Virus record (IMG/VR): IMGVR_UViG_3300026522_000029
Reading direction: 5' to 3' (one strand)
Length of the DNA: 64,000 nucleotides
Origin: an uncultured virus (IMG/VR IMGVR_UViG_3300026522_000029)
Taxonomy: Duplodnaviria > Heunggongvirae > Uroviricota > Caudoviricetes
In this document: positions 6,981 through 58,711 of the stretch, piece after piece
Layout of the letters: every line of letters starts with the position of its first letter
Numbering within the stretch: position 1 is the first letter of the stretch
The notes under the pieces: generated by a model
What the model saw: the letters and a program-made list of their open reading frames with translations, nothing else
Database searches by the model: none
Told to the model about the DNA's origin: nothing
Made by a program: the position numbers and the translations under genes

Positions 6981-7042
6981 CTCTCAACATCATAAGAATC
7001 TTTTCTTTCGTATCTAGTTCGCCAATTGGCGAACTAGTATCT

Positions 7043-7116
7043 GGCTCCTTCTTCTAACTGGTCTAGGAAGCTGGATTTTCAATCCAGCAATGCGGTTTCG
7101 AGCACCGCAGGAGCTA
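7043..7116 (+). tRNA. tRNA-Glu(TTC)
   Basis: Cloverleaf; anticodon arm CTGGA-TT TTC AA-TCCAG. Confidence 0.9.
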
Positions 7117-7464
7117 TTTATCAACAAAGCAATTACCTATCATGCAACGAAACCGTCCAGACGTTGCGCACGTGATATGCTAGCATCAGGTGGACCCAGG
7201 AGTAGAAGATGGGCGTCCTACATAGGAAAATATTTGTTGATATAATTATTGTGGGAGCGATAGCCACATTAAAAAGAGTCGCCTAATATCTCTCTGCGGG
7301 AGCGATGCGCGCCTGTCTTCCGCTTAATAAATATATTTAAGAGATAAAAGGAGATGTGGATTTAGACTAATATCTAGATCCACTAGTGGGGAGAATAGAG
7401 TTTCATGCGGGGGCAGTACCTGCACTCTCCGTTCTATTTATTAATTTAAATGAGGTATAAAACT

Positions 7465-7803
7465 ATGACGTTTCCATTTACAACTGTTATTGCTATTCTT
7501 GCTATTGGGTCGGTACTAAATATTCTTCTGACTCAGGCTATAAAAACTACATATAGAAATGCAGGTAAATAGGCGCCGCCGAACGTGATTGCTTTTATTG
7601 ATGCTATTGTATGCGGCGGGGGTGTAACAGCAGTTTTTTATGTGTTAATGGGAATACCATGGACTGTCAATAATATCATCATGCTAGTGTGTTTGATCTT
7701 TTTTAACTGGCTTGGTGCTACTTTAGGCTACGACAAGGTAATACAGACGCTAGAGCAGATAGGGAAGATATCTAGCACTATCACAACAGATGACAAGAAA
7801 TGA
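7465..7803 (+). CDS. holin-like membrane protein (one in-frame TAG)
   Basis: GAGG RBS, ATG 7465, TAG 7570 in frame; three hydrophobic segments, GYDKVIQ end. Confidence 0.65.
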
Positions 7804-7995
7804 TATTGATTTTTAAAAAATTTTTTGATATAATATTTATGCAAAAGATAAGAGATAGGAAATAAAAAGTAAGAAAGTTTCTCTACATAAGTCAGTATAT
7901 CCTGATCATTGTGTTATTGCATGATAGATCATTAGATATAAAGTTAGTCATCTTAATCTAACCTCACAACCTATTGCAGTATGCGTGAAAAATAT

Positions 7996-8068
7996 GCTAG
8001 TGTGACGCAACGGTTAGCGTAACAGTTTTGTAAACTGTAAGTTGAAGGTTCGAATCCTTTCACTAGCT
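7996..8068 (+). tRNA. tRNA-Thr(TGT)
   Basis: ACAGT-TT TGT AA-ACTGT; GGTTCGAATCC. Confidence 0.92.
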
Positions 8069-8195
8069 TTATCTAGCGTAAATTGGATACTTACTTTTAA
8101 AGAGGGACAGCAGATTCAATCCCCTATTACGGAATAGACACCACCTAGGGGAACTCTAGAGTATATAACACTGCTCAGGTTATACTGGCAATTAT

Positions 8196-8282
8196 GCTCC
8201 GCTGGTGAAATTTTTCGGAAAACACGTGGTATTTAAGCTACCATACCCTGAGGGTTTAAGGGTTCGAGTCCCTTGCGGAGTA
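8196..8282 (+). tRNA. tRNA-Leu(TAA)
   Basis: TGGTA-TT TAA GC-TACCA; long variable arm. Confidence 0.9.
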
Positions 8283-8384
8283 CGATGAAGAGGATAGGTT
8301 AAAGTAGCTCTTTAGCTGATAAGATTATCTCACTCAATCTTCCTCTTTTCATTTTAATATGAGAGTGAGAGAAAGAGTGAGCGT

Positions 8385-9290
8385 ATGAAAATTGATGGAT
8401 TAAAAGGTTATATTTATAAAATTTAGAATATTAAAACTGGTGAATGTTATATAGGAAAAACGACATATTTGCATCCAGAAGTACGGTGGCATCAACATAT
8501 TGCTAATGCTAAAAAAGGTATGTGTAAAAAGGGGTTATATCCAGCTGTACGAAAATATGGAGTAGATATTTTTAAATTTACTGTGCTAGTACCAGTATAT
8601 GGACCTAACTCTTTAGAGTTAACTGAAAAAGAATATATCAAAAAATATGATAGTTATTATCATGGATATAATCAAAGTAAAGGTGGAGAAGGATGTCACT
8701 ATTCTAAGATAGATGATTCTAATTTAATATTCTTATGTTCTTTATATAATTCTGGCAAAACTATTGCTGAAATAGCTAAAGAAACAGGTTTTGACAAAAA
8801 ATTTATTTCTACTTTTTTAAAAAAGCAAGGTATCACTATTAAAACTCCAAAAGAAATTGCCATTCATAGAACTGGTAAGAAAGTTGCTATTTATAATGAA
8901 AAACATGAGTTGTTAGCTATTTACCCATCTTTAGGTGAAGCGGCAAGGCATTTTGAATATAAAAAAGCAACTGCCTCTCATATATCAGAAGCTTGCTATG
9001 GAGAAAGAAGAAAATCTATTAATGGATATTTTTGTAAATTCACCGACAGGGATTGTTATAATGAAGATTTTATAATTCCAGAAAATCCATATCATACTAC
9101 AGACGTAACAAAGAAAGCAGTTATTATGTGTGATAAAAATGGAATAGAAATAATGCGTTTTCCAAGTGGGTGCGCAGCAGGAAGATATTTTAAAATGGAT
9201 AAACCAAGTCAAGCTACAACGTGCATTAAACGAGCATGGGAAAGAAATGGCACTTGGCGTGGTTATAAATGGAAATATGTAGAAAATTAA
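8385..9290 (+). CDS. GIY-YIG homing endonuclease with NUMOD-like repeats (one in-frame TAG)
   Basis: GYIYKI*NIKTGECYIGKT: the GIY-YIG motif spans TAG 8424; GYNQSKGG; repeated xxYPSLGEAA motif. Confidence 0.88.
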
Positions 9291-9360
9291 TTTAGAAATA
9301 CTAGTATAAAGTAGCAATCTTAATTAGGAACTTGTTCAATATACTTAGTATATATATCTA

Positions 9361-9696
9361 GGGGTAGAAATAGGTTCGACAGGCACCCCAGAGTTAAAAG
9401 TAGCACGCAGGTGATTCCTTTATAATCAACTTAAAATTAAACGCTAACTATAATAACGTTGCACTTGCTGCCTGAATTGGCGGCGGCTTCTTAAAGAAAT
9501 ACTTCGGTCTTTAAGCGGTCTTATCTAGAAGTTGCGTATGGGTTGAGTAGCGCCGCCCTACAAAGATAAGCTAAAGCGGCTTTAGATGGTTCGTCTATTG
9601 TTCACATCTATTGCGTTCATGAGATACAGTAGACTAAGCGTGTAGATTCCTCTGATCGGAAATGTTTGGACGGGAGTTCGACTCTCCCCAGATCCA
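9361..9696 (+). ncRNA. ssrA: tmRNA, tag peptide ANYNNVALAA* (9443-9475)
   Basis: GGGG...GGTTCGAC 5' end, ALAA-TGA tag, GACTAAGCGTGTAG, 3' GGACGGGAGTTCGACTCTCCC T-arm. Confidence 0.92.
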
Positions 9697-9700
9697 TTTT

Positions 9701-9773
9701 GCTCCATTAGGCCAACAGTAGAGTCAATCGCCTCAAAAGCGATATAGTGATTGTGCAAATCAATCATGGAGCA
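9701..9773 (+). tRNA. tRNA-Leu(CAA), short variable loop
   Basis: ATCGC-CT CAA AA-GCGAT; perfect acceptor stem; T-loop TGCAAAT. Confidence 0.82.
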
Positions 9774-9831
9774 TTGCATTTTCAATAAATTTATTATATA
9801 ATATATACATAAAGAGTTGAGAAAGAAATAT

Positions 9832-9903
9832 GAGTCGTTGGTGTAATGGTAACATATGCGCCTCCAAAGCGTTAAGATCAGGGTCCAAATCCTTGGCGGC
9901 CTG
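9832..9903 (+). tRNA. tRNA-Trp(CCA)
   Basis: CT CCA AA loop; weak acceptor stem. Confidence 0.75.
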
Positions 9904-10011
9904 GAGCAGAAACTGGCATGGCTGACGAAAATGTATAAAGCACCGTTACATCAAATGCGGCGTTTGTGTCAGTATAAAGGAATGGTATAAAGCAGGGAAA
10001 CCATTCTATTT

Positions 10012-10098
10012 GGGTCATTAGACTACTAAAGTAGGTAGGCGAGTCTGTAAAACTCGTGTATTTATTTACCTGAGCGGGTGCAATTCCTCCACGACCCA
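10012..10098 (+). tRNA. tRNA-Tyr(GTA)
   Basis: CGAGT-CT GTA AA-ACTCG; long variable region. Confidence 0.82.
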
Positions 10099-10103
10099 TA
10101 TAT

Positions 10104-10179
10104 TGCAGAGTAGACTGGAGTTTGGTACCAGCTCTGGCTCATAACCAGATCTACGCGAGTTCAAATCTCGCCTCTGCAA
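10104..10179 (+). tRNA. tRNA-Met(CAT)
   Basis: TCTGG-CT CAT AA-CCAGA; TGCAGAG/CTCTGCA acceptor stem. Confidence 0.88.
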
Positions 10180-10280
10180 AGAATGAGAGAAAGAAGATAG
10201 ATTAAGGTCGCTCCTTAGTTGATAAGTTTACTCCATTTAACTTCTTCTTTTTCTTTTTATTTATAATAAAATGGAAAGAT

Positions 10281-10340
10281 ATGGCTTTTATTTATAAAAT
10301 TATTAATGATATAAATGGAAATTTATTTGATTTTTTATAA
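10281..10340 (+). pseudogene. truncated GIY-YIG endonuclease N-terminus
   Basis: MAFIYKIINDING, then interrupted by promoter 10327; same leader as the 8385 gene. Confidence 0.6.
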
Positions 10341-10601
10341 ATATTTTGATATAATATTTATATAAGATAAAGAGCAAAGAATATGGCTTGTAGAGGTTCA
10401 AATCCTTATTGTTCTTCTTCTAGCGTAGTAATACCTGAATTGACAGGTTATATCCGAGCGGTGCTACTTATGTAGTGCTAGCGATTGACTCCGGGAGAGC
10501 GGTAGCGCTGAGGATGACTTACTCCGACAGGACTAATAAAGTAAGTCGAACAACGGAATGGTTTGGTTGTAGATGCCAATGTAACTAAACCATTCTAGTA
10601 T

Positions 10602-10676
10602 GCCCTTGTAGCCCAATTGGTAGGAGGCAACTGACTTAGGATCAGTATAGTGCAAGTTCAAATCTTGTCAAGGGTA
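10602..10676 (+). tRNA. tRNA-Leu(TAG), short variable loop
   Basis: ACTGA-CT TAG GA-TCAGT; variable loop ATAGT. Confidence 0.88.
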
Positions 10677-10806
10677 TGAACCGTCTAGAGAAAACTTCAG
10701 TCACTCTCTAGAAAAAACTCAGCCAAGGTCAATAGTAAAACTGAAGTGCTATTGAATAATGTGGAAAGAGGGTTGGCTAAGGATGGTTAGGCTCCGCCAC
10801 ATATAT

Positions 10807-10882
10807 CGGCCTGTCCTCTAGTGACCAAGGAGATATAACTCTAAATTATAAAACGTGGGTTTGAATCCCACCAGGCCGTCCA
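10807..10882 (+). tRNA. amber suppressor tRNA(CTA) with tRNA-Glu-like body
   Basis: CGGCCTG/CAGGCCG acceptor, TATAA-CT CTA AA-TTATA (anticodon 10841-10843), GTGGG/CCCAC T-stem, encoded CCA. Confidence 0.92.
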
Positions 10883-10932
10883 CCTCCTTTCTTACTAGTG
10901 TTCTAGGAGGTTAAATTAGAAACGCTAGACTT

Positions 10933-11014
10933 GCTGCATGTCCGGGTGGTGAGGGAGCTGACTTGAAATCAGTTGATCCGAAAGGATTTGCACGTTCGAA
11001 TCGTGTGTGCAGCG
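10933..11014 (+). tRNA. tRNA-Ser(TGA)
   Basis: GCTGA-CT TGA AA-TCAGT; long variable arm; G73. Confidence 0.9.
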
Positions 11015-11042
11015 TTACTTTTACAAAGGAAGGTATAAATGT

Positions 11043-11405
11043 ATGGCAAATATTCTACCACGCTATAGGCGCAAGAGTGCTATGATTTAGAATTACTCTG
11101 GTGATGAAGTTCTGAATCTTAATAAACAAATTACAATAGAAAACAACACTATTTATATTGGTGGAATTTCTACTGGTATTAAAATTGAAGGCAAAGATGG
11201 TAAATCTGCTTATCAAATTGCAGTAGAACATGGATATAAAGGAACTGAAGAAGAATGGATTAAATCAATAGAAACTGGTCATCAAACTTCTTATGAAAGA
11301 GCAAAAGAGCTTATACCAGATATTTTACTTGCGAATGGTATTAATTCAGAAGAAAAGTTCTATAGACAAGTTCTTAATGAAATTAGGGATTTAGATACGA
11401 AATGA
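11043..11405 (+). CDS. hypothetical protein with GKSAYQIAVEHGYKGTEEEW motif (one in-frame TAG)
   Basis: ATG 11043, TAG 11088, TGA 11403; the motif usually accompanies collagen-like phage fibre repeats; absent from ORF track. Confidence 0.7.
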
Positions 11406-11694
11406 TGGGTATTATTGCTTTAATTGTTGTTGGTATCCTTGCTGCTTTTGATACTCTATTGGCATTAGGCTCGGATGATAATGACGATGATTGATTTTTC
11501 ATAAAATTTTTATTATAATATATGTATAAAATAAATAGTAATCCTCGTTACCAAAGAAGAATGGAGCATTGCTAATCCGCTTCGATTTGATCCTAGGAAT
11601 TTAAGAGAAGGGTAAGTTGATGAATATTGTAGCGATTGGCCAAGCGAAAGAATAATCGACTCTATGCAGTAAAGATTACTATTTATTTTTTATT

Positions 11695-11780
11695 GGAGAT
11701 ATGGTGTAATGGTATCACAAGGGATTGCTAATCCCTCCAACCTTTTACGGGTTGTCTCAGTTCGAATCTGGGTGTCTCCG
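11695..11780 (+). tRNA. tRNA-Ser(GCT)
   Basis: AGGGA-TT GCT AA-TCCCT; long variable arm. Confidence 0.92.
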
Positions 11781-11911
11781 TAACTCTAGGCTTAAAGAGT
11801 ATAAACATACAGCAGGTCGGGGATACGATTGGTTTCATGACTACTGAAAGATAGAAAGACTTAATTGTCTGGAGCGAGTCTTGTAGTTATATCCACAATA
11901 GCTCCAGTACA

Positions 11912-11982
11912 CGAGAACGTAGTGTAACAGTAACACACCGCTTTTGGGAAGCGGAGTAGCGGGGCGGCACCGACGTTTTCGA
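11912..11982 (+). tRNA. tRNA-Pro(TGG), 8-bp acceptor and short T-stem
   Basis: CCGCT-TT TGG GA-AGCGG; CGAGAACG/CGTTTTCG. Confidence 0.78.
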
Positions 11983-11984
11983 TT

Positions 11985-12097
11985 GACGAACGTAGCTCAA
12001 TAGGTAGAGCGTTAGATTTTTGAGATTTTTGTCTTGGTAAAGGCAATAACAGCGAACTTTATTCTAGGTGTTGCAAGTTCAAATCTTGCCGTTCGTC
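11985..12097 (+). ncRNA. tRNA-His-like RNA with a 46-nt insert in place of the anticodon loop
   Basis: G-1:C73 8-bp acceptor, canonical D and T arms, TTAGA/TCTAG stem enclosing 12017-12062. Confidence 0.75.
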
Positions 12098-12128
12098 TGG
12101 AGGCTGTCCATGGAGGCCCATTATATAT

Positions 12129-12200
12129 CGAGATCGTAGTGTAATGGTTAGCACCCCTTGCTTGGGACAAGGTAGAGGCGTTCGAGTCGCACGATTTCGA
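12129..12200 (+). tRNA. tRNA-Pro(TGG), 8-bp acceptor and short T-stem
   Basis: CCTTG-CT TGG GA-CAAGG; CGAGATCG/CGATTTCG. Confidence 0.82.
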
Positions 12201-12505
12201 TTTAAATTAAGTGGTCTTATTTGCTGTCGATGCTAGACTTTTAGCAGCAAGATAAGTGTAGGAAACATCATTCTAATATGATGAAAAAAGATGCCAACAA
12301 AAGTATCCAATACTACTCCTATCCTATAGAGCATCTTGGCGCGGGAGACGTCCCGATGACCTTCTTGGAGAAGCAGCAACTAGATACAGACCTAGTATAA
12401 AAAGGTGACGCGCTGGCAGATCGCAAGTTCGCAATAGTCTGCCAAATTTTAATCAAAGAAGTGAGTCCTCAAAGAATAGAAGTAGGATTCCAAAGGAGTA
12501 TTGAA

Positions 12506-12811
12506 ATGAGAACTTATTATGAATCTGATAATGGAAAGACATTTGAATCTGAAGAGGAAGCAAGAGAAGAGGACAAAAAGTATCTTGCAACTCAAAAGAA
12601 GGAAGAAGCAGCTAAGGCAGAGCGTAAAGAGGCTTCTCAGAAAGTTATTGATGCGTATAAGAGTGCTGCTAAAGCCAAAAGAGACGCAGAGAAGGAAATG
12701 CAGAAATTTATTGATAAATATGGTAGCTTCCACACAACTCTGAGAGGAGACGATTGCAAAGATTTCTTTGAATCTCCGATTGATCTTTTCTTTGACCATC
12801 TTTGGTTCTAA
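12506..12811 (+). CDS. hypothetical coiled-coil protein
   Basis: AAGGAG RBS before ATG 12506. Confidence 0.75.
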   Translation: MRTYYESDNGKTFESEEEAREEDKKYLATQKKEEAAKAERKEASQKVIDAYKSAAKAKRDAEKEMQKFIDKYGSFHTTLRGDDCKDFFESPIDLFFDHLWF

Positions 12812-12926
12812 TGGGCGGGCGCCGCTCGACCGTCACGGTTTAACGGGCGCCGCCGCACAGGTTTCGCTTAACCTTTAATAAGTACGTATAAGCATCTGGG
12901 GCACTACTAAATGCTCCAGATTATCT

Positions 12927-12999
12927 AGGGGCGTAACATAACTGGTTAGTGTACTAGACTTTGACTCTAGGTATCCCCGTTCGATCCGGGGCGTCCTTG
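12927..12999 (+). tRNA. tRNA-Gln(TTG)
   Basis: CTAGA-CT TTG AC-TCTAG; CCCCG/CGGGG T-stem. Confidence 0.9.
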
Positions 13000-13102
13000 T
13001 TTTCCATATATAAATGATGATAGGATGTTTCAATAAGTTGATTTTTTGAAAATTTTTTGATATAATATATACATAAGATAAAGAAAGAGGAGAAAAAGAA
13101 AA

Positions 13103-15259: not shown

Positions 15260-15369
15260 TTCTTTAAAATGGAGAAGACTTGACATCTTCTCCATTTTTT
15301 TATTGCCTTTTTATAAAAAATATTATATAATATATTTATAAAATAATAGAAAGTAAGAGGAAAAGATAA

Positions 15370-17225: not shown

Positions 17226-17499
17226 AAATAGGGACGATGGGAAAAAGATGATAATAAACACTGATCATATTGACGCGATTTACCCAGAATTATATACTAT
17301 ATTTTTTACTGGGGAAGATGATCCGTTGTACATTGATGAAAAATCTAATAGATAAAATTGAAAACGCATGAGACGAAAATCGCAAAAAGAGTAATCTAAA
17401 ATCTTCCACTTTTTTATTGCATTTTTATTAAAAATATAATATAATAACAATAGAAAGAAATGAAAGAGAAAATAATATAAGTAAAAAGGTGAGAATAAA

Positions 17500-20835: not shown

Positions 20836-21333
20836 TTATTTTTCATCCTGCATTTTCAAAATCACTTCAATATTATAATCACTAATCTTTAATTTCATGT
20901 ATTCTTTTTTAGCCTCACAAATCTCTTTTGTTACATCTTTTATTAACTTTTCAAGAATTCCTTTTTCACATCCAGTTGCAGTTTTATAGTTTTCTTCGTA
21001 AAATTGTTTTGTTTGTGTCTCCCACTCTAACCACTTGTCAAAAGCAAATTTAGTTCCCTATCTAACAGTAGCTGTATCAACATCTTTTTTAATGTGTGAA
21101 TACCAGTCTTGAGGAATTATACTATCACTAGGCTTAAATTCAATAGCAGGAATGAGTTTATCCTAATTGTCCATATAGCATCTCTGCGCTTTTAATGAAC
21201 TACAAAATTCCTCCTTGGCTTGATGTGCATGAAAATCTGAAAAGCCATCTAAACTAATAAAATTATAATATTCACTTAATCTGATATGAAAGATTACACC
21301 TTTCATTATATGATCTAAAATTTGTTCTATCAT
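20836..21333 (-). CDS. helical (ferritin-like) hypothetical protein (two in-frame TAG)
   Basis: 166 codons open if TAG is sense; GGAG RBS; KWLEWETQTK; absent from ORF track. Confidence 0.7.
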
Positions 21334-22564: not shown

Positions 22565-22832
22565 TTTTACAAATCTCCTTTATTAATTGATCTGCATTAA
22601 TGCCACGCTGACTTAGCATTTGTCTCGCTAATTTCTAAGGGTCGCCGCCATTTTGGTTGACCATCTTCATAATCTGAGTGATTTTAGGATCATTATTTGC
22701 TATCATCTGTTGTAGCATTGCTTGCGGATTTTTGATAGAATTAAACATACTCAAAAAAGAGTTAATATTACTTGCTAGGCTTTGTGATTGTGTATTTCCC
22801 AGCATTTGAAGAATTGGATTGCTGTTTGTCAT
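22548..22832 (-). CDS. hypothetical protein (reads through TAG 22635)
   Basis: NPQAML...GGDP*KLARQML; TAA at 22548. Confidence 0.7.
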
Positions 22833-23115
22833 GATATTCTTTTATTTCCTCCTAAATTTTAGCAATTCTCGTTTCAAGAGAAGTAAGAGTAGATGTTTCA
22901 GTTTTATATGGGGCAATAGTATAAGGTGAAATAGTTTTATAGCCAGCCCCATCTGTTTGAATCAACCACACTAATGGCGCAGTTGTATCCAACAATAAAG
23001 CTGAACTATCTGGTGCCATCTGATAGGCTTCCGCACCATTTCTACCATTTACTCTTGTCACTTGTTGTTTTAGGGGCGGTGCCCCAAAATATGGATTAAA
23101 ATTAGGATATTGCAT
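22768..23115 (-). CDS. hypothetical protein (reads through TAG 22852)
   Basis: RVNG..GAEAY.MAPDS..LLLD...TDGAG; RIAKI*EEIK. Confidence 0.75.
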
Positions 23116-31697: not shown

Positions 31698-31868
31698 AAT
31701 ACACATCAGAAGCAGCCGAACGGAGCAAGACCACGAGCAACGTTGGCGTCGTTGTAGTAGGCAATCCCGATGTCGTCGACCAAGCAGAAGGCATCGCTGT
31801 GGCCACTGCGAGGAGAACGCTCCCACCAGGAACCACTAGAGACGTTGGAACTCCACCTCGGAAGCTTG
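31698..31868 (-). repeat. variable region VR2
   Basis: Identical 3' end CTCGTGGTCTTGCTCCGTTCGGCTGCTTCTGATGTGTATTA shared with VR1. Confidence 0.85.
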
Positions 31869-32539
31869 TTCCTGTTAGCCGCTGTCTTATAATAGGTATA
31901 CTGACTTCCCTATCCAGCGACAGAATATGTAGCAGAACCGAAAATCTCTATTTCTGAGCCAAGGAAGATTGAATCTGAAGTTGTTTCAGTTCCACTTGAA
32001 GAACCGCCACCTGTACCAGATTTTTTATTTACTGGCTTAATAAGTGCTTGTAAATTAGCAGGTAAAGCTTTTAAATAAACATTGTTACACCAAGTTCGTC
32101 TAGTACAACCTCGCCATCCATTGGTATTAGTATTGCTACTATTCATATATCCACGTTCACTATCACTCGAACCACCTGTATCAGATACATTTGCAGCTCT
32201 TAAGCAATCTTTTTGTGTCCAAGTAATAAGAGCCTTTGTTTTATCTCCAATAGCAGTAGTTAAATCATCATGATTAAAATCAGCAATAGCAAGTTGTACA
32301 GTTTGCGCTCGATGTGATTCTCCAACACCCGTCGCCGCCATTGCGCTTAGAGAAACATTTCTTACATCTCCAACTTTCCACACACTCTAAATTTGATCAA
32401 GAGTAACATCTCCATCATAATACCCTTGCACCATAGCCGCAATCTGTTTATCAGTTCCACTTGACCATGCTACAAGTTCAATATTTTTTCCTCTTGTTAA
32501 ATTAATCTTTTTTCTTAAAATTGCTAAAGTTTCTGCCAT
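31706..32539 (-). CDS. DGR target protein 2, paralog of target 1 (two in-frame TAG)
   Basis: MAETLA start; TAG 32387 and 31910; collinear with target 1 through to GLAPFGCF. Confidence 0.85.
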
Positions 32540-33758: not shown

Positions 33759-33971
33759 TTAGCCCTCCGAATCAATAGTAATAAACCAAACCGAACCAGG
33801 ACTATAAATAGCATTTGTATGGTTCGCAGGAGCATTACCATTAAAAAAATCATTTTTTAAATTATCATCAATAATAGTTTTTCTTTTCAGAAGATTTTCA
33901 GCTCTTCTTTGCAGGTCAAGATAATTTTGAATCTGCTTTACTGTAAGAGTTTCCTCTGGCCAAGCGCTCAC
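33759..33971 (-). CDS. small hypothetical protein
   Basis: GGAGG RBS with GTG start. Confidence 0.65.
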   Translation of the reverse strand: MSAWPEETLTVKQIQNYLDLQRRAENLLKRKTIIDDNLKNDFFNGNAPANHTNAIYSPGSVWFITIDSEG

Positions 33972-34354
33972 GATAACACCTCCTGAATATTGAACCCATT
34001 AGTTTCTTCTATAATAGAAATTGTTTTTGTTTTCTTTAAACTACTTTGCCCATTCTAATCAATCCAATACAATTTTTGAACAATAGTATCAGCATCAGAA
34101 TTGATATTTGTATCTACCCTATAATAAGAAACAGTGGCGGCGGCAGGTGCATACTTCTCACTAATCTAGAAACTTCCATCTTCATTCTCTAGAATAGATG
34201 TTCCATGATCGCCGCCCAGCTTTAATTCTCTCTCAAGCGACAATCCACTAAGCATATCTACATAACTGCCGTCTGTTCCAAATGGAATAAATACATCATA
34301 ACTAGAGGCGCCAATCTTCTTGCGCGATCCCTTAATTGTTTGTACTGTAGCCAT
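33968..34354 (-). CDS. hypothetical protein (two in-frame TAG)
   Basis: TAG 34166 and 34055; TGA overlaps next start. Confidence 0.75.
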
Positions 34355-37871: not shown

Positions 37872-39977
37872 TTAAATCTTAGACAATGCTCGATAACAAC
37901 TTAGGTTCATAGTAGATTCCACATCAAGAGGAAGTGAAATTGAAGAAATAATATAATCCCCACTGATACCCGCTGCGTCATCTTGCACTGTTATACGTGT
38001 GTTTGGCTCCAAGTAATAAATTGGTAATGCGGAGATAGTAATAGATTCATTCATATTTGTATATTGATACAACATATCACAGATTCTTTCGTAACAAGAA
38101 TTCTGACTTCCGCCAATAGAAAGAAGACTATAAATAGTCTCATCAACCTGCACCCAATCTTGTCTCATTGCATCACAAGCTTTCTTTTCTTCTTGTATCT
38201 TTTCTGCACTTTGGGTTATATCAATAAATACTAAATCTGGTACTTCTTGTTCAAATACACAATTGATCTTGTCCTATGATACTACCGTGCTGCGCCGCCC
38301 AATATTATCTACACTGTACTCGCCAACTGCTGCATCATCATCAATTATATCTAACCAAAAATCAATACTACTTGGATCTTCTTTTACACTATCATAAAAT
38401 TGTTGCGTCTTTAAATTAAAGAGCTTAGGCCATTCATTCAAAAGCTCAGTAAAATAATATGGATAGTCACCGCCCGTATCTTGATTTTCAACTCCTTCAT
38501 AATAGAGTTCCTCTCTCCAATCAACAGTAGTGACAGTGCAACTATCTTTTGTTACTTGGTAATAACCTCTTTCTTTTGTCCAACGATAAAATTGTCTATC
38601 ATTAAGTTTACCAATTATATAAAGAGTATTGTCTGCTCCTTTTTCTGGTAATTCAGAAAAATTATTATAAGTAAATGTAAATTCTGCTCCCGCTCTTGTG
38701 ATTCCATATTCATCTTCATAGAAATTTACATAATGCTCTTGACCTATCTATGGCTTTTTATCAATAGCTAAATGGTAACGAATAGGTATTTCTGTCTCCC
38801 CGTCTGCGCTCTTCCTAACACCCCAAACCATAAAATCATTCTTTACGTTGCTATATTTAGGTGCATTAGTTGTTGCTGTTATTTTTTGAGTACCATCAAA
38901 ACTATAAACAGATTTACCGCTTGAAAAATCTACTGTATAGCCAGGTGTTTGATTTAAATTATCTAATACAGTAGTAGTATAAGTTGTATTTAAATAATTC
39001 TTAATTTCTTGAAAATGAAAATATCCATACACATCATAAAAGTATTCATAATTACCAATTACTTCTATAATTTTATCAAGTACATCTGTAACAGTATCTC
39101 CTGGATCACAAATTAATTCACCTGGATATACGAAATCAGTCATAACAAAACCAATGTCATCACCATATTCATATGTTTTAATATCTTCTTCTTTTTGTCC
39201 AGTTGCGGCGGCCGCTGCTACCGCCTCGTCTCTATCTAGAAAGAACTTTCTACTGGTCTAGGTTCCTGCTGCACTTTCAAGATAATAAATTGGAGTATTT
39301 CCAACATATTTCATTACCTGCTTAATTTGCTCATCAACATCAGATATAATGATCTTCGAAGCGTCCTCCGCCCCAAAATGATTCACGACTTCAAAAATAA
39401 TCTGATACATTAATGGATTCTCAATATCTCCATTCGAATCTTCTCTCTCAGAAAACGTAACAGACGCAGGAATTACCCCACCGGCATCGCCATTCAGTAA
39501 ACACATTTTATCTTTTAGTGTTAAAGAGATTGTGGCGCCCTGTGATACTTGATGAGAAATACTTGGATCAAAAATGACATAAATTCCAAGAGGAAACCAA
39601 ACAATGTCTCCATATTTTTCTTTATAATCTACAAAGTGATGGGTAATTCTTTTCTTGTCATCTATTGTATCATACATATAGGTAGGAACTGTATTAGTAA
39701 AACCAATTTCCAGTTTCACTTTTCTATTGATTGATAAATCTTGATCTATATGAGACAAATCATTATCTTTTTCCTCTGCAAACATTGTAAAACTAGCCGT
39801 CCTACGCACAGAAGAAGAGCCATCTAGATTTAAAGATCCTGAGATGGCTTTTCCTTGTATTTCTGCAATAGGTTCCTCAGCCCAAGAAAGGACAGTTAAT
39901 TTTACAAATTGCTCTTTTATACGCAAGCTATCTAGCTGTTGTAAAAAGACTTTATCTTGTAAAAAATTCTCTTTCAT
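37872..39977 (-). CDS. baseplate hub-like tail protein (three in-frame TAG)
   Basis: Three track ORFs joined in one frame via TAG 39258, 38748 and 38274; GSSSVRRT, WFPLGIY, PIYYLEPNTRI. Confidence 0.8.
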
Positions 39978-39998: not shown

Positions 39999-42698
39999 TC
40001 AGTACACCCCTTTAACTGCTTGTATTTGATAATTGACTAGCGCTGGAATTTGACAAGCTATATCATAACTTGTTCCATTATCTTGTGGTGTTCCTAGATA
40101 CCATGCTCCATTAAAATAAATATGTACGCCCTCTGAATCGGTGTATTTATCTAGGTGCATAGGATCATTAGGTCTGGCGCCGCCCCTATCTTTTAAGAAT
40201 CTATTTTCTATGTTCCTACCATAAAAATATAATTCAGTAATATAGCCACTATCTTGTCCAGGATCAATAGTCAATGATCCAGTTTCATCAACTAACATTC
40301 TAGAAGTCTTAGTATTACCATTCGTTGACACATATAGAACAACATTCGGATCACATTCTATATCGACATTATATAAAGTCTGCATCTTCGTATAATAAGG
40401 AGCTTCAACAGCTTTAGATTGATATAAATCAAGATAATATCTTTGATAAATTCTTGTGTAAAGACTTGTTCTACTATTGAATGGCCCAACTAACTGCCCA
40501 TTAATTGTTTTATAAATCAATGTAGTAGCAACTGTACTAGTATCATTACTTTCAGATAGATTAATGACAAAATCGACCGTCATTTTTGTATCTTTTAATG
40601 GAATAATAACATCGCTTGAAGTAATATGAATGTTCTCGCCTTTCATTTCATATATTGTATTTGGATACTCAATTACAACAGTCGTGCCACATATATTTAC
40701 AAGCGTTCCAAGTATCGTTTCTCCATCTGGTACATCTTCTGTTGGAGGAAGATCGTCAAGAGGGGTAAGAGTATTATTTACATTTTTAATCATATATGGT
40801 GGTGAATTTACTTCAATCTTTAAATATGAAAGGTAGAAATCATCTACAACAACATCGTTAATTGCCTGCCCCCAGTGAAACATACTTTTAATATTCGGAA
40901 TAGAAGATGACTCTCCTGTTGTACCCATTAAATTATAACCAGCTGGCCAATAATCCTCTGCTGTATCAAGATCTTTCCCATCTTCACTCCAAATTCTGCT
41001 GTATCTATTTAATTGGCCAATTTTTACTTCATCAAAAGTAATATTCGGATTATATGTACCAATAGTTTGAATACCATACTTATCAAAATTCTTCAATGTG
41101 GCATCATCAATTTCAATAGCAGTAGCATCTACAGAATAAAGTAATCTACCAAGTTCCGTTTTTGGCGTCAGGGTAATATTCATTAGTTTAATTAATAAAT
41201 TACCTTCTGTTAGAGATCTAAAAATTTTTGGCTTCATGTTATACAAGAAGGCTTCTACTTTTTCTCTAAATTGACGTTCATAAGTATAATCATATCTACC
41301 GCTATAAACTTCAAGAGAATGAGCGCCATGGGCCTGAGCATATCTATCAACCTGATTATCTCTAATTTCTGCTTCTGTTGCAAAATAGTGGTTATTATCC
41401 ATATATGTAGTAATTAAGAAAGAGAAAGGGAAACTATGATAATACATATTGCCGTTTCTTCTTACATATGGATATTTTGAACCAATTGTATCTGTTTTTG
41501 CTTCTCCAACATTTACTGCTGTATTGGAAATATTCATGTCATACCGAATTTTTAACTGTACAACTTTTCCATCTTCATTATTACTCTCTGTGAGGAATGC
41601 ATCATCAAACTCGCCCATTTCAATAGTAGACATAATCGAAGAGCTACGGCGGCCCCGGTTATCGCGACTTTGGGCGGCGTACCTATAAAAAATACCAGAC
41701 TCTATTGTAAAATCATTAAATTCCCAATCTAGAGTTGCATTATCAAAAGTTTTATTTGCTATATCTTCCCAGACCAAAAAATTGCTCTTTGATGAAGTCC
41801 GTCTTAAAGTAACACTAGTATGAACAACATCTCCATTACCGACTAGATTTACTTTTGCAAAGCCGTCTTCTTCATCTATCTGAAGATTCAATTGAGCATT
41901 TAATGTTCCAGAAAGAAAAGACATAGCAGTAAATATATAATCTTTACTTTCAGTATACCCATTCTTCGTCTCAATATCGAATACTAAATGATACCTGAGA
42001 TTATTAGACATCCTATATTCTAGTTGAGCAGTAAAAGAAATTCGCCCAGCATCAGATTCATAAGTATTGGCTGATTGAAAACCTGTATCAGCAAGTAAGG
42101 ATGATTTTGATTCATTATATAATCTCATTCTCCAATTGCGAAGACTTTCAGATTGATTCACTGGGACATACACGCCAGTAAAAATCGGCTCTAGATTAGA
42201 ATATGTGATAGAAACTTCCTTGCCCGTTGTAGCTGTATCTACTCCACCTAATTCTATAATATAAAAAGCAGGAATTTCAATAGGTTTCAATAGACAAACA
42301 GTAGACCACTCAGAGGCGGCGCTTGCTAAATTCGTGGCAGATGTGTAAGCACTCCAAGACTTTGTGCTAAAACGTAATTGAACTTTATAAATAGTATCTG
42401 GTTCAAAACCGCCGGTTATTAGATCTGTTGGCTCTATCTCAATATAATAACGTGCAGCTGTTGAAGCTATTGCAGCATCTTGAGCTGGAGTCGTTTCTGT
42501 AATTGAACAACATTTAATTTTATTTGGATACTTATCCGTATCTAGTGCATTTGCATTGTTTTTTTGGTATCTCACTAACACCTGCGCCTGCGCTATATCT
42601 CCTAATGAATTGTAAGTAGATATAGCAAAATAAACTCTTATTCTCTATTTATAATTGAACGCAGGAGCGGAGTAACTAATTATTGGGGGATACAACAT
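39999..42698 (-). CDS. large tail protein (one in-frame TAG near N-terminus)
   Basis: GGAGGAG RBS before MLYPP; DTIGSKYPY..RNG; YERQFR. Confidence 0.8.
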
Positions 42699-42728: not shown

Positions 42729-43307
42729 TTAAGGGCGCTTCTCATCTGTGTCCGCCTGCATAATCCTTATAAATTCCTCTTCAGAAACTACCTACCAAGT
42801 TAAAATAGCAGGTTTAATATTTGTATGGACGAACGAATTCCCACCCGCAGCTTCGTATGATTCAATAAGTCCTTCGAAGCTTTCTAACTCATTCTATGTT
42901 AAAAAAGCTTTTCCGTTGTTTATCTCTGCCCTCTTTTGATAAGCTCTGAAGCTCTTCTCTATTCTATCTTTTAAATCATGAATATCTTTTTTCTTTTGAT
43001 AATCATGTGTTTTTACCATAAAATCAGATATTTCATCTAATTTTCCAAGAATTTCTACATCTTGATTATGAAGTTTTTCAAATTTTTCATCTGACTCTTG
43101 TTTCATAATAGTCATATCATTACGAATATTTTTAATTTCATGTTCATTGTTTTCTGACTGCTCTTGAGTAGCATCATATTTGTTTCTAGCTTTACGGTAG
43201 GCTTCTATACACTTATAGATAGCAATAGCTGCTAGAATAATAGCTACAACCCAACCGAGTACAGCTCCAGCAGACAAGGAGCCTAAATATTCTATAAGCA
43301 TCTACAT
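42729..43307 (-). CDS. membrane-anchored holin-like/lysis protein (three in-frame TAG)
   Basis: N-terminal TM helix, coiled coil, YEAAGGNSFVH; TAG 43302, 42894, 42792. Confidence 0.7.
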
Positions 43308-43409
43308 TGAACGATACCTCACTTTTCATTATATAGACAATGAAAAGTGCAGAAAAAGAATATAACATTTTAGACCAACAAAAAAGAGGGCGATGATTTA
43401 ATCCTCGCC

Positions 43410-44126: not shown

Positions 44127-47100
44127 TTAATTAATATAATTGCCATTATGATCTTTTCCGCCAGTAAGAACTCCATTAATGAATTCGAGCCAAGTATTGT
44201 CAGAAAAAACAACTCTCACAGTTTTTCCCTTCTGACCTCCAACTACTAAATCTCCAGTAATGGAAACTTTTTTACCAAAAGCTGCGTCAGCAAACACAGC
44301 AAAATCCTCATAAAAATATCCACCACCTTTGAAAGCCCATTTTCCTTCTACAGTTAGACTTTTTCGGGCAACAAGATTATCAACAACTAGATTTGGAATA
44401 TATTCTGCTAAAGTAGTATGACCATCATCTGCAAGTACAGTCCCGCACATTAATTGCCCTGCTGCATATTTAAGTCCATTAGCAGCACTTACTATATTAC
44501 CAGTCTTACCTAACATTCCATTCACCAAATTCATAGCCCCACCATAAGCGCCACCAGTCCATGAATTAGCACCATCACCAATAGTAAAATTACTCTTAGC
44601 GGTAATATCGTTGAAATTTGCTTTTCCTGCATTACTGATACTCCAATTGCTTCCACAGCTAATTCCATTTGAAGCGTCAATAGAAATACTGTTGTTGCTT
44701 AAACTATTAGGCCTAATTGCCCAACCACCAATCTTACCAGTCGTTACTGCAATTAGCTCTCGACAAGTAATTGTACCATTTGAATTAAGAGTTGTACTAC
44801 CTCCAGATAATTCATTTGTACCAATATTCCAACCGCCAATAGTACCAGAAGTAGAAGTAATTTTACCATTGCTATTTACTTTAAAATTATTATTAGCAGC
44901 CTCAAAAGAACCATTATTATGCACAATAAAAGCATTATTAACATTAATTTCTCCACTAGACTTTAATGTTACATTTCCACCTTTTAACTCGGTCTTACTA
45001 ATATTCCAACCGCCAATAGTACCAGAAGTAGAAGTAATTTTACCTGTTTTGTCTACCTTAAAATCATTATTGGCCGCCTTAAAAGAACCATCTGCATAAA
45101 TTACGAATTTTTGCTTGCCAACGGCGATTCTCTCTACATTTTCTCCAGTTCCTTTAGAATATAATGTAGTATTTTTATCTTGAGAACTTAAACTGTCATC
45201 ACTGATTTTCCAACCTGCAATAGTTCCTCCACCTTTTGCTGTGAGATGACCTTTTGCATCTACTTCAAAATCTCCAGAACCAAATCTAATACTTGGTGTT
45301 TCTAGATCAATTAATAAACCGGATTCAGCTTCAGATACAGGTCTTCCTGTAGTATCATGATTATAAAAACCCCAAGAGAAAATAGAACCGGCGGGGGCCG
45401 CTCCGTAGTGGTATGGAGCTAGAGTAATTTGTCCGTGTCCTGGCAAACCAAATTGCGCTTTTCCTGTTTCTGCATCTAGGAAAATACTTCTTTGACCACT
45501 AGCAAATCCCATTAAACCAATTTCTCTTTGTCCGTTACCATTGGCATTAAAAGACTTGCCCATAGTAATACCAGTAAATCTATTTGAGCTATCTTTTTGA
45601 CCTGCGCCGATTTGAGGAGCAAGAATATACTGGTCGCCCTCTTCATTAATCTTGATTGATGTTCCATCCCAATCATTCATTGCTGCAAGACCATATCTAT
45701 TCAAATACAAATAAATTGATAATATAATAGTATAATTCCCATCATTATCGCTATAAGTAGCAACAATATAATTATTAGTAGTTTCACTATCGTATACTGA
45801 AGGTGGATTAATTTCTACTCCATTTTGCCCTTGTAACTGAGTATTTTTCCTATTTGTATACCAACTAGTATACCATGAAATTCTTGAATTGTCAACTATC
45901 TGTTCTACGCCATCTTTAAAAATCCTTAATTCAAAAGGCTTAGAGCTGAAAGAACTTCGGGTACCATCATTATTATACATACACTCTCTGAACCCACCAG
46001 TAACAATTGCATGAATGTTTGAATTAGGGGTTCGTGCAATATCAAGTGGATAGGTAGCATAATAATTTTTAGCTTGTTGACTTAATTCATTGGTTTCTAT
46101 TGTTGTTTTTATAACAGTAGAGACATTATTATATGATCTAGGGGTGAGTATACCATTTGAAGAAATTTCTGCATTATGAGTAGTATCTCTTCCTATATCT
46201 ACCATTTCCCAAGTTAATCCAGGAGCTAATGTAATATTAGTTCTAGAGTCATACAGCGGCGTTGCGTTTCCATCCCACAATTGTGCTTTTAATGGCTGGT
46301 TAGTTGAGATTCTTGTAAAGTTATATTTCTCTGTAATCTTTTCTTCACCTGTTTCAGCGTTATATACTTTATCTATATCTCTATACCAGCCATAAATATT
46401 ATTATTCTCTAAATAAATTTTCTAATACTTGTCGTTGAAAGGAACTATTTTACTGATATACTTAGTGCCGTTTGTTCCACTCTCGCCTTCCTTAACAAAA
46501 GTAAAGTTAGTAGAAGCTACGAGATTATGACCTTGAAAACTTACTTCAAGTCTAATTGTATTATCAGTGGCATCTGCATCATATCTATTTTTAATTTCAA
46601 AAGTAAGATTAGCTGCATTTTTTAATACATGACGGAGTAAATTACCATTATTAGTTGGATTAATGACTAAATCATCTACTAGATCAAAAGTCTTGTGTTG
46701 AAGCATAGTATAATCTTCATCGGGCCAAACCCATTTAATATCGCACATCTTGATTTTTTCTGTATCAGATCTAGGTGTAACAATTTGTCCCTGGTCATTA
46801 TAAATATCAAAAGAGAGAGATGGAACAGTAATAGGCTCGTCAGAAGCTTTGTTAGTAGGGCTTACTCCATATTCATTATATTTAAATACTTGTGTACCAT
46901 TATTAATGATAAGAGTATACTCTTTCTCTGACATGCCATTGGTAAGAGTGATGGCGGCCGCGCCTATGTACGTCCCAACACTAGTTACTGTACATTCATA
47001 TGTCACAAGATTAGTTGCTTCACTAATTTTTACTCCTATTGATTTACTTTGATCTCCAACTGTAACTAAAGTTTCATCTGCACTTCTGTACCCCCAATGA

Positions 47101-48428
47101 TAAACCAATGGCGTTGTAACATCTGTTATTACATTGCATGTTAATGTAGTAACGCCAGTATCAAAATAAAACTTTGTACCTGCACTAGATACAATTTCAA
47201 TAGAATTCGTAGCAGCTTTATTCTCAATATCAATAGTCCCAGAGAATGTAGTATTATTTGTCACAGCCACACACTTAAAAGTATTGACCTCATTTGGCGC
47301 CATTGTAGGTCGTAGATCTTTTCTATATCCCTCTGGTGTAAATTTAGTCACTCCATTATAAGTTGTATGTTGGTTAAGACATCTCCAGCCTGCGCCCGCA
47401 TAACTTGAAAAATTCTCATTATCTGCACTTGTTACTGTTGTATCTTTAATAAACCAATAAAAATCAACATTTTGTGAATTAAAATTAACCTTTTTACCTT
47501 TTATCTTTAATTCTGCTTCAAGATAAATAGTGTCATCATTACTTGATTTAAAATAAGCTCCATTTGGAGTTAAAATTTTTAACGAGCCGCCCTCTAATTC
47601 AGTTTCAGTAAGAGGCTCCATGAATTCTAATTCAAAATCTGATAAGAAAATATCATTAGGTTGATTTTCTTTTGTTACAGGGAATCCATTACAAAAGGCC
47701 TCAATGCTCTGAATTGATTTAAGATTGTTTCCATCAATAGCAAAAATAGTATATTGACGATTTTTTACTATGTATTTGTATGGTTGTCCTTGCATATTAT
47801 TTACATCAAGAACATAAGTTCTAGTTACTAAATCATCATCTGATTGAACTTCTTGATTTTTGTAGGCAGCGTTGTAATATTGCGCCTGAACGATAATGCC
47901 ATAATTTCCTCCGGCGACCTGTTGTTCGGCAGGAAGAGACGTTTTTACAGACATTCCAAGAAGAATATATTTTTTCTATTTTTTGTAAGTAGACAGAGCT
48001 ACAGGATCTACAGTAATAATATTTTCTGAAAGAAGATTCTTTTTTTGTTCGCCGTTATATGAACAAAATTGCACAGTATCAGAACTGGCAAGTAGATTAT
48101 TACCAACAACAGTCATTCTACCTTCTGCTGTAACTGCACCGATGTATTTTGTGCCTAGCTCTTTAACTGAACCAACGATTAGCTTTGTTTTTTCATAGTC
48201 ACTAGAAGGTATTTCAACATATACTTGGTCATCTACATCATATGACTGATCTGGATTTGCATATGCGTAGAATTTTGAATTCTGATATCTCACCAAATAC
48301 TTACCTATGCTGGAATCTTCAATAGAAACAATAGTAGCTCTAACCGTATGGTCAAAATTCAATTGACTAACTCTTTTATTCAATAAAATCTATATTGAAT
48401 CAAGAATATTCTGTTCAATGTTAGACAT
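44127..48428 (-). CDS. large tail protein/central fibre, 1433 aa (three in-frame TAG)
   Basis: Track ORFs 47976, 46422 and 44127 joined via TAG 48390, 47976 and 46422; GTIGGWNI repeats. Confidence 0.8.
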
Positions 48429-57550: not shown

Positions 57551-58711
57551 TCAAATCTTCACGCCTATTGTTTGTTTTATCTATTTGGGAACTTCATTAG
57601 TAGCAACTACTTCTACTTTATTCCTTAATCCTTTTCGGATATTTTGCTTTATTGGGTCTTTATATTGTTTCTATAAAGAAATTTGTTTTAATTCAGAAAC
57701 AGTCTTTATTTTATTATTTAAAATTTGGTTTGCAAGAGTAACCATCTGGGTATATCCAGGAAGAGAAGCATTTAATGATTTTACCGCATAATCGTATTCA
57801 TTTGTAGTTATATCTGAAGCATATAGTCCAGATACATTATCAACATTGACAACACCTTCTCGAATAAAATAGTCCATATTTCTATTATATACTCGCCCTA
57901 AAAAAAGAGTGTTTGGATTACTTCCTTCGCCACCAGTGTAGAAAAAATATGCATAGGCCTCTGCAATATCTCCGGCGGCGCCGCCAATAGTCAACTTATA
58001 CCAAATATTTTCCGTATCTATTTTCCAAAAAACATGGGGCTTCCATTTTTTATAATCTGCATCTGTCTCTTTATATGCTTCATTAAGTCCTTTTAAAGAT
58101 TGTGCCCCTATAATAGAGTCTTTCCTAATAGCTTCTGCTAAATCCGTTTTAACTTTATCAATACTAATTTTTAAACGCCCAACTAATCGTGGAATTTTAG
58201 CAGAACTCATATCTGTTGTTATTGAAATTCCTTTATCTCCTTGCAAAATTTTTTCCATTGGAATATTAAGTATTATTGGATTTCCATCTGCATCTAGGAA
58301 AACAATAGATATCTATGCTTTATGCCCTGTTATAATTTCAAGAATTCTCGCATTAAAAATCATTGAAGCTGCATAAAAATTATCTAATGTTTTATTAGCT
58401 AATCTCTATTGTTTGAATTTTTCTCTAGCTTCAATATATTGCTGCACTTCTACAGGATTTTCCACAGTACCTGGAGCAACCTTTAAACTATGTCGTTTGT
58501 TCCTTAGAGATAAAGCGGTTTGCTCTAATTGCATAATCTCTTCTCGGCTAGCTTTAATAACTTCTATAAAATCTAAAGCATATTTTTTCATTAAAAGAGA
58601 ACCGTCATCACCAAGTTTTTTTAATTCCTCCGCGCTTTTATCTCCAATAAGATTGGCTATTTGCTATATTGCCCCATCAGATACTTTTATATCCGGGCCA
58701 AAAGTTGCCAT
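57551..58711 (-). CDS. hypothetical protein, 386 aa (five in-frame TAG)
   Basis: GGAGG RBS; joins track ORFs 58406 and 57671 in one frame. Confidence 0.7.

Follow-up and report, generated by a model that had tools for sequence, protein, structure and literature searches.

An amber codon probably read as glutamate, and its candidate suppressor tRNA, in a tailed phage of ruminant guts

Introduction

Phages are already known to recode stop codons through suppressor tRNAs of their own. Work on recoded phages has so far dealt with two reassignments, TAG to glutamine (Gln) and TGA to tryptophan (Trp), with glutaminyl-tRNA synthetase (GlnRS) and tryptophanyl-tRNA synthetase (TrpRS) as the enzymes that can be hijacked. 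These are the terms in which recoded phages are treated in the Borges preprint, the Phass-1 paper, a 2026 survey of jumbo phages, Cook et al. and Peters et al. In phage code 15 (crAss-like, Lak and Phass-1 phages), in-frame TAGs lie mostly in late or structural genes, the suppressor sits in the phage tRNA array, the phage brings no synthetase and a standard genetic code is presumed for the host. The DNA studied here, 64,000 nucleotides from the uncultured virus IMG/VR IMGVR_UViG_3300026522_000029 (the window), is alike in these respects. The phage to which the window belongs is tailed, lives in ruminant guts and has a genome of the roughly 140-kb class; the window combines in-frame TAGs in late genes with a tRNA carrying the amber anticodon CUA, tRNA(CUA), at 10807-10882 on the plus strand. 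Alignment of TAG with Gln in homologs, which marks phage code 15, is found in sister phages and not in the window. Unlike in code 15, the window TAGs align with glutamate (Glu), and the suppressor has a C1-G72 first pair, U73 and a Glu-type D helix. Comparison with relatives makes it probable, in our judgement with good confidence, that TAG means Glu in the virion and tail genes of this phage and that the tRNA at 10807-10882 is its own decoder.

TAG is translated as Glu in two nuclear codes, NCBI tables 30 (peritrich ciliates) and 31 (Blastocrithidia), in which both TAG and TAA mean Glu. The window shares with them TAG as Glu by way of a tRNA-Glu-like suppressor. It differs in that those codes are eukaryotic and nuclear and reassign TAA too, whereas TAA is the main stop of the window (30 of 47 listed genes); the change proposed here is viral, probably at work only late in infection, and probably takes place on a standard-code bacterial host. 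A second parallel is synthetic. Suppressors of the E. coli tRNA-Glu(CUA) type are reported to be mischarged in E. coli, partly or mainly with Gln by GlnRS; such synthetic amber suppressors were reportedly made by Normanly, Kleina, Abelson and Miller in 1990. The phage tRNA likewise joins a CUA anticodon to a tRNA-Glu-type body, and it differs in its C1-G72, U73 and C10, which should block Gln, and in its hosts, which probably lack GlnRS. Literature searches for TAG or UAG as glutamate, with supplements outside the search, returned only glutamine, eukaryotic or contamination contexts and nothing in phages. Within the literature searched, TAG as Glu in a phage is not in print, and the amino acid and the rule that appears to select it are new.

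That rule would belong to the indirect route to Gln-tRNA, in which GatCAB converts Glu on the tRNA to Gln. According to PMC9976931, the bacterial identity elements of glutamyl-tRNA synthetase (GluRS) are U11-A24, U13-G22:A46 and the lack of residue 47; those of bacterial GatCAB are U1-A72 plus the D loop (PMC9976931 and PMC2811023), and PMC2811023 describes S. aureus GatCAB as recognising the first base pair and the D loop. A preliminary description of the window had quoted the same GluRS elements and U1-A72 for GatCAB, as well as TAG to Gln and TGA to Trp as the reported phage reassignments; the former agree with these two sources and the latter with the Borges preprint. The charging proposed below would be the first step of the indirect pathway, and its first-pair and D-loop checkpoint (PMC2811023, PMC9976931) would decide between Glu and Gln. 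The pathway normally keeps Glu and Gln codons apart, whereas here, as we propose, the checkpoint would fix the meaning of a stop codon.

Results

TAG sites of the late genes align with glutamate

With TAG counted as sense, the longest open reading frame (ORF) of the window has 2737 codons, compared with 1086 under the standard code and 1336 with TAA as sense. On the minus strand, 13 genes spread over 20.8-63.6 kb contain 33 in-frame TAGs altogether, almost all of them within the structural module, and 31 of the 47 listed genes are free of TAG altogether, ending in TAA (21) or TGA (10). For a codon-by-codon comparison with relatives, we translated the late genes and wrote X for each TAG. A scan of IMG/VR for loci with a single protein gave no relatives; alignment-based scans gave the locus sets used here.

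Two sites carry most weight. The gene of a PF27211/phrog_4051 virion-module protein (62238..62999, minus strand, as are all TAG-carrying genes below) has four TAGs, at amino acids (aa) 36, 87, 196 and 214. Among 80 IMG/VR loci, the position of the TAG at aa 36 is occupied by GAA in 65, GAG in 12, a Gly codon in 2 and TAG in 1, and that at aa 214 by GAA in 62, GAG in 16, TAG in 1 and an Ala codon in 1. Both are near-invariant Glu columns (77/80 and 78/80) with no Gln and no Lys.

Glu recurs at further sites, in company with other residues. In the virion structural protein phrog_6123 (62989..63609), the single TAG (aa 74) stands in a column with E 29, D 21, K 13 and Q 9 among 80 relatives, and in the endonuclease phrog_4645 (61402..62217) the single TAG (aa 254) meets E 6, Y 5 and T 1 in 12 relatives. 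The large tail protein of 1433 aa (44127..48428) has three TAGs, one of them at aa 13, where relatives have D 8, E 6, N 1 and Q 1. Of the three TAGs in the baseplate-like tail protein phrog_32343 (37872..39977, 701 aa), the one at aa 568 faces D 46, N 15, K 6, E 5 and TAG 3 in 80 relatives, and a 239-aa database protein that is 99% identical to residues 1-239 ends right before another, at aa 240. A late protein with no named family (57551..58711) contains five TAGs; at the first of them (aa 16), the database protein P0121, 96% identical to the product, has E. The one TAG of a small protein, phrog_21718 (22768..23115), is matched by GAG in L109 and L110, both of them close relatives. Raw counts summed over 168 loci and every window TAG site were E 283, D 91, K 57 and Q 52, and per-site weighting gave E 4.91, T 2.96, D 2.13, K 1.39 and Q 0.98.

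The closest whole relative, G006 (loci L189-L193), is syntenic with the window at about 70% nucleotide identity. Opposite the window TAGs it has TAG 17 times, GAA 7 times, GAG 4 times and CAG once (Glu 11, Gln 1). In the reverse direction, TAGs of G006 face GAA 26, GAG 13, CAA 9 and CAG 3 times in the window (Glu 39, Gln 12), and those of a second relative, G008 (loci L194-L200), face Glu 21 and Gln 2 times. We scored these comparisons with a self-calibrated likelihood that takes its substitution frequencies from the same alignments. Glu was the best residue at the window sites compared with G006 (n=26; Lys 27.7 and Gln 33.7 bits worse), at the G006 sites (n=88; Gln 83.7 and Lys 119.7 bits worse) and at the G008 sites (Gln 52.2 bits worse); a further comparison put Gln 14.1 bits behind Glu. 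By the same comparisons, many relatives of the window phage also appear to read TAG as Glu and not as Gln.

The other TAG-carrying genes encode the tail tape measure protein (48594..56789, 2731 aa, five TAGs), a small coiled-coil/membrane protein (42729..43322, three), a protein of the tail/baseplate region (39999..42698, 899 aa, one), a small late protein (33968..34354, two) and a DUF6273 protein (31706..32539, two). An ORF of 165 aa with no family match (20836..21333, two TAGs) has almost no aligned relatives and is the weakest of the 13.

Sister phages as controls and the glutamine reading

We applied the comparison to sister phages with other codes. TGA-recoded loci returned Trp (for example L030, W 24.1 of 52 sites). 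TAG came out as Gln in L073 (19.7 of 41 sites) and in G005, where Glu was 18.5 bits worse. In G003, TAG came out as Trp: the window has TGG opposite at 11 of 14 sites, and against standard-code relatives this phage (L066) scored W 14.1 of 29 sites. The tRNA(CUA) of G003 (10262-10354) adjoins its tRNA-Trp (10182-10253) and is a paralog with acceptor and T arms in common; it classifies as Trp (+20) and has an insert of roughly 25 nt in the variable region. G003 thus appears, from its codons and tRNA sequences, to read TAG as Trp, of which our literature searches found no report in phages. Since Gln, Trp and Trp at TGA were all recovered in sisters, the method tells Gln, Trp and Glu apart, and it agrees with the tRNA bodies where these are clear. 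In a second locus set, 39 loci had at least 10 scored TAG sites; Glu was top in 25 and Gln in 14, the 39 loci not being independent lineages.

These controls bear on the reading that precedent would suggest, namely standard phage code 15 with TAG as Gln and a CUA suppressor charged either by GlnRS or by GluRS followed by GatCAB. All precedent (crAss-like, Lak and Phass-1 phages) is Gln, as in the Phass-1 paper, and amber suppressors are glutaminylated in E. coli according to PMC9976931. TAGs of G006 stand opposite window Gln codons at 12 of 88 sites, and the closest database proteins have Q at the window TAG positions. In P0001, which is 96% identical to the product of 62238-62999, this is so for all four TAGs, and in P0147 for 8 of 8 positions at which the DNA of the close relatives L109 and L110 has TAG. 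The Q residues of P0001 and P0147 are therefore best read as the work of a gene caller using table 15 and not as CAG. Likewise, P0002 has Q at TAG positions. The Gln reading is hard to reconcile with two columns of 77 and 78 Glu in 80 without a single Gln, with 11 Glu against 1 Gln opposite G006 and with a deficit in all four likelihood comparisons, all from a method that does call Gln in 14 sister loci and G005; the suppressor also lacks U1-A72, G73 and G10. We hold it to be highly improbable. The preliminary description had arrived at TAG as Glu, not Gln, from the tRNA, and the codon alignments with their two near-invariant columns, the 34 to 84 bits against the closest relative and the sister controls now support it. 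If TAG is Glu, the entries P0001, P0002 and P0147 were mistranslated by table 15, and translation with this table writes Gln for Glu in database proteins.

The suppressor tRNA has a Glu-type core

ARAGORN places a tRNA of 76 nt with anticodon CTA at 10807-10882, and the RF00005 covariance model scores it at 54.3 bits over model positions 1-71 (gathering score 29; E 1.4e-11 on the local stretch). Its acceptor stem, read against the Rfam alignment, is CGGCCUG/CAGGCCG, which gives C1-G72, G2-C71 and G3-C70. U8 and C9 lead into the D stem CUCU/GGAG (C10-G25, U11-A24, C12-G23, U13.G22), which encloses a D loop of 9 nt, AGUGACCAA, and is followed by A26. The anticodon stem UAUAA/UUAUA is all A/U, and the 7-nt loop CUCUAAA has the makings of an amber suppressor: U33 precedes the anticodon CUA (34-36), and position 37 is a purine. 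The variable loop of 4 nt (AAAC), the T stem GUGGG/CCCAC and the T loop UUUGAAU complete the body, which ends in the discriminator U73 and an encoded CCA; none of the other ARAGORN tRNAs of the window, 13 in all, has CCA encoded. The features listed in the preliminary description (the CTA anticodon, U8-C9, the D-stem pairs, the AAAC loop and C1-G72) were all found again by ARAGORN and Rfam. The plain minimum free energy (MFE) fold leaves both the anticodon stem and the D stem unformed (z-score -2.64), so the cloverleaf rests on the covariance model.

Position 56 in the T loop is U, against C in 459 of 462 family tRNAs. In the D loop GA stands at the place of the usual GG, as it does in one of the two other family tRNAs with U56, and an A19-U56 pair in place of G19-C56 would fit these sequences. 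The match between U56 and GA speaks for a tRNA under structural constraint. No copy of its 21-nt D arm was found by exact search in IMG/VR, no match to the tRNA by BLAST in the records of five relatives, and, at blastn sensitivity, no match to it in GenBank phages, which also gave no near DNA match to the late region.

ARAGORN labels the tRNA 'Pyl' because of the anticodon alone. A tRNA-Pyl was rejected, as no pylS-type family occurs among the 30 window ORFs scanned against Pfam and TAG aligns with Glu. Readings as Pro-like (from C1-G72) or Gly/Cys-like (from U73) were set aside with Pro, Gly and Cys negligible at the TAG columns.

Two tRNAs of the same array serve for comparison, tRNA-Glu(UUC) at 7043..7116 (plus strand; G1.U72, A73, U8 C9, D stem UUCU/GGAA, 4-nt variable loop) and tRNA-Gln(UUG) at 12927..12999 (plus strand; A1-U72, G73, U8 A9, D stem ACAU/GUGU). 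The D arm of the suppressor resembles that of the former and not that of the latter, as had been noticed beforehand. Four features come in addition to that earlier account: the tRNA-Gln, too, has a 4-nt variable loop, and the suppressor has U73, the encoded CCA and U56.

All parts of the augmented D helix recognised by GluRS are present in the suppressor (U11-A24, U13.G22 with A46, no residue 47). U1-A72 or a weak first pair, the trait of tRNA-Gln and GatCAB substrates, is absent. E. coli GlnRS relies on the discriminator G73 and on G10, and the suppressor has U73 and C10 at these places.

The first pair separates the family tRNAs in the same way. All 21 parsed tRNA-Gln have U1-A72 or A1-U72, as against none of the nine parsed tRNA-Glu (G.U 6, G-C 2, C-G 1). 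Seven distinct suppressors come from genomes with TAG as Glu: that of the window, a type common to G001, G014, G015 and L139, and those of L134, L151, G011, G012 and G013. They have Glu-type D arms and a first pair that is C-G (five), G-C (one) or G.U (one) and never U1-A72. The five suppressors from genomes with TAG as Gln have U-A (G016 and G018), a U/C or A/C mismatch (G019 and G005, one each) or G.U (G017). The TAG=Gln sisters thus differ from the window in a first pair that is U1-A72 or mismatched and in a long variable-region insert, of 20-27 nt, in four of five suppressors (G005, G016, G018 and G019); none of the seven TAG=Glu suppressors has such an insert.

Points against the glutamate reading, and other ways of decoding

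Several observations count against Glu at TAG or against this tRNA as its carrier. At many window TAG sites the column is variable, with Thr, Asp, Lys or Ser as common as Glu. The column at aa 196 of the gene at 62238-62999 (E 45, Q 18, L 13, N 4) suffers from a bias, since E and Q were the only residues that one of the three scan patterns admitted there; the bias is confined to this column, and aa 36 and aa 214 are unaffected. Within the tRNA, C34 and A36 take the place of U34 and C36, the strong determinants for GluRS in E. coli: of the anticodon-loop set U34, U35, C36 and A37 the suppressor keeps U35 and A37, a mismatch that no amber suppressor can avoid. The weak E. coli determinants G1-C72 and U2-A71 are replaced by C1-G72 and G2-C71. 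The TAG=Glu relatives G006 (100 kb, 64% complete) and G008 (137 kb, 89% complete) show no tRNA(CUA). The assignment of the host, from distant homology and the binning of phage contigs, is weak, and the evidence for both TAG as Glu and charging with Glu is comparative throughout.

Isotype scores belong among these points as well. We classified tRNAs by a naive-Bayes position profile built on 442 family tRNAs with the anticodon ignored (leave-one-out 359/442). Over the whole body no isotype was positive for the suppressor (Lys -2.4, Tyr -16.6, Glu -18.0, Gln -30.3), a smaller training set gave Lys +5.4, and the acceptor stem with the discriminator alone gave Glu -8.0. When the profile scored no more than the D arm, the variable loop and positions 8, 9 and 26, Glu came top (+3.8; Gln -9.1). 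Pairwise identity to 319 family tRNAs favours long class-II tRNAs and is hence uninformative. The preliminary description had spoken of a tRNA-Glu body and had proposed isotype scoring as a check, which we approximated by our own profile; the description is borne out in the D arm and variable loop, and only there. The suppressor, by its sequence, is an outlier with a Glu-type core and not a plain copy of tRNA-Glu.

The top rank of Lys in the whole-body classifier raises an alternative in which U35, by attracting lysyl-tRNA synthetase (LysRS) and GlnRS, leads to a tRNA(CUA) that receives Lys in part or for the most part, or else a Glu/Lys/Gln mixture. Several amber suppressors with U35 insert Lys in E. 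coli, as stated in PMC9976931, and at the window TAG columns Lys ranks second or third in frequency. The classifier scores lie near zero and amount to no call, and the discriminator is U73, not the A73 that is important for LysRS. Ambiguous or Lys decoding would also have to explain two window TAGs in near-invariant Glu columns without Lys, and likelihoods of Lys 27.7 bits (window sites against G006) and 119.7 bits (G006 sites) below Glu. We regard it as very unlikely.

A different alternative keeps Glu at TAG and looks elsewhere for the decoder: 10807-10882 would be a recent or decaying acquisition, or one decoder among several, with a tRNA or factor elsewhere in the phage genome or in the host. 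The lack of a tRNA(CUA) in the sequence examined of G006 and G008 would fit this, as would the atypical make-up of the tRNA (all-A/U anticodon stem, U56, U73, a CCA unlike its neighbours) and the failure of the exact D-arm search to find a copy. G006 and G008 are incomplete, though, and nine genomes or loci with TAG as Glu (G001, G011-G015, L134, L139 and L151) each have a tRNA(CUA) in their array. The tRNA at 10807-10882 itself sits within the early-strand array, scores well above the gathering threshold as a tRNA, and its U56 goes with a D loop that has GA for GG, as would suit a compensated tertiary pair. All in all, another decoder seems unlikely. We also noted, in G006 and G007, a peculiar gene that resembles a tRNA and has an anticodon loop of 8 nt (ACCA).

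How the suppressor may deliver glutamate

Under the reading of TAG as Glu decoded by the tRNA at 10807-10882, the host GluRS would charge this tRNA through its augmented D helix, U35 and A37. The resulting Glu-tRNA(CUA) would escape GatCAB because its first pair is the strong C1-G72 instead of U1-A72, and U73 and C10 would make it a poor substrate for any GlnRS. The suppressor, so charged and not amidated, would deliver Glu at UAG. With TAG kept out of early genes and concentrated in late ones, late expression may depend on the suppressor, as has been proposed for other recoded phages.

Charging by the host is proposed from the first-pair rule and from scans for phage synthetases. In five TAG=Glu relatives, of which four are 93% complete or more, the scans gave neither the GluRS/GlnRS catalytic domain PF00749 nor the class-I release factor family PF00472; neither was found among the 30 window ORFs scanned against Pfam, and none of 49 window ORFs scanned against PHROGs was annotated as GluRS/GlnRS or class-I release factor.

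Homologs and bins make a host among the Bacillota probable. Distant homologs of the baseplate-like protein occur in Phage Phass-1 (31% identity), to which the window family is distantly related, and in Enterococcus phages (28-31%), and 16 of 18 metagenome bins holding relatives are labelled Bacillota (Bacilli, Erysipelotrichaceae, Anaeroplasmatales, Clostridia, Eubacteriales, Roseburia). Bacillota as a rule make Gln-tRNA indirectly, as do many other bacteria, by a non-discriminating GluRS and GatCAB, and Bacilli, to our knowledge, generally lack GlnRS.

Several codes in one phage family

Standard-code members and members with TGA as Trp or with TAG as Gln, Glu or Trp occur in one phage family (loci L009-L088 and L109-L188). 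We built a quick maximum-likelihood tree of the baseplate-like protein (81 rows, midpoint root; rows with a best match below 350 residues excluded). On it, L109, L110 and L122, all of which have TAG=Glu, form a group with the window at a Shimodaira-Hasegawa-like approximate likelihood ratio test (SH-aLRT) value of 99. The four code labels are interleaved over the tree with 14 changes in total, compared with a mean of 39.8 after shuffling, and the TAG=Glu label requires at least three changes on well-supported branches.

We think it fairly likely that this family of gut and rumen phages of Bacillota, with genomes of about 140 kb, holds at least four stop reassignments (TAG to Glu, to Gln and to Trp, and TGA to Trp), of which TAG to Glu would be the commonest, with at least three origins, each with a different suppressor body. 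Meaning would be set by whether the first pair passes or fails the GatCAB/GlnRS checkpoint of the host, a weak U1-A72 leading to Gln and a strong C-G or G-C pair with a Glu-type D helix to Glu. As part of the same proposal, the family would supply the first example of a stop-to-glutamate code from outside eukaryotic nuclei, and many phage proteins translated by table 15 would wrongly carry Gln. If true, it is the suppressor body and not the codon that chooses the amino acid, GluRS and the GatCAB checkpoint are a new entry route for a change of code, and these phages offer natural, probably orthogonal tRNA(CUA) scaffolds for the insertion of Glu.

Occurrence in gut metagenomes

In several studies, metagenome runs from bovine and sheep guts contain contigs that cover 76-79% of the words sampled from 57000-63900, and contigs from three DNA runs are about 99% identical to the window over this region. 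Contigs of four runs differ from it at 124 places, and among 40 of these strain differences none lies in a TAG codon. Contigs from RNA libraries over the same region are no sign of transcription. Samples that could serve a proteomic test of Glu at TAG therefore exist, given the near-identical contigs from bovine and sheep guts.

Setting of the window

About 35% of the window is G+C. Early-type genes occupy the plus strand at 0.7-20 kb, and the minus strand from 20.8 kb to the window end carries tail-fibre, baseplate, endolysin-like, tape-measure and virion genes. The array that includes the suppressor (7042..13000, plus strand) comprises the 13 ARAGORN tRNAs, one extra Rfam tRNA with an insert and a transfer-messenger RNA (tmRNA; 9361..9699, plus strand, Rfam 87.5 bits), which is also present in the relatives G006 and L005. 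The extra tRNA (11986-12097, plus strand, 112 nt, Rfam 56 bits) was missed by ARAGORN; it reads as having the anticodon UUU (Lys) and an insert of about 40 nt 3' of the anticodon loop. For many array tRNAs (for example 7042-7117, 9700-9774 and 10011-10099), ARAGORN draws an eighth acceptor pair between a T before position 1 and an A after 72 or 73, which may be a shared processing signal. A GIY-YIG/NUMOD1 endonuclease gene (8451-9290) lies inside the array.

Adjoining the array, the plus-strand stretch 13772-20307 is a possible RNA repair or tRNA maintenance cluster. It encodes a Ro/TROVE-like RNA-binding protein (phrog_850, DUF2828/DUF7788), a pentapeptide-repeat protein (DUF7666), a Thg1-like tRNA-His guanylyltransferase (17500-18246) and an RNA ligase (19072-20307).

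In the late region, contigs of three runs link 59462/59465 directly to 60346/60350 and leave out 880-887 bases. The HNH endonuclease gene located there (59636-60136, minus strand) would hence be variably present among strains, as expected of a homing element.

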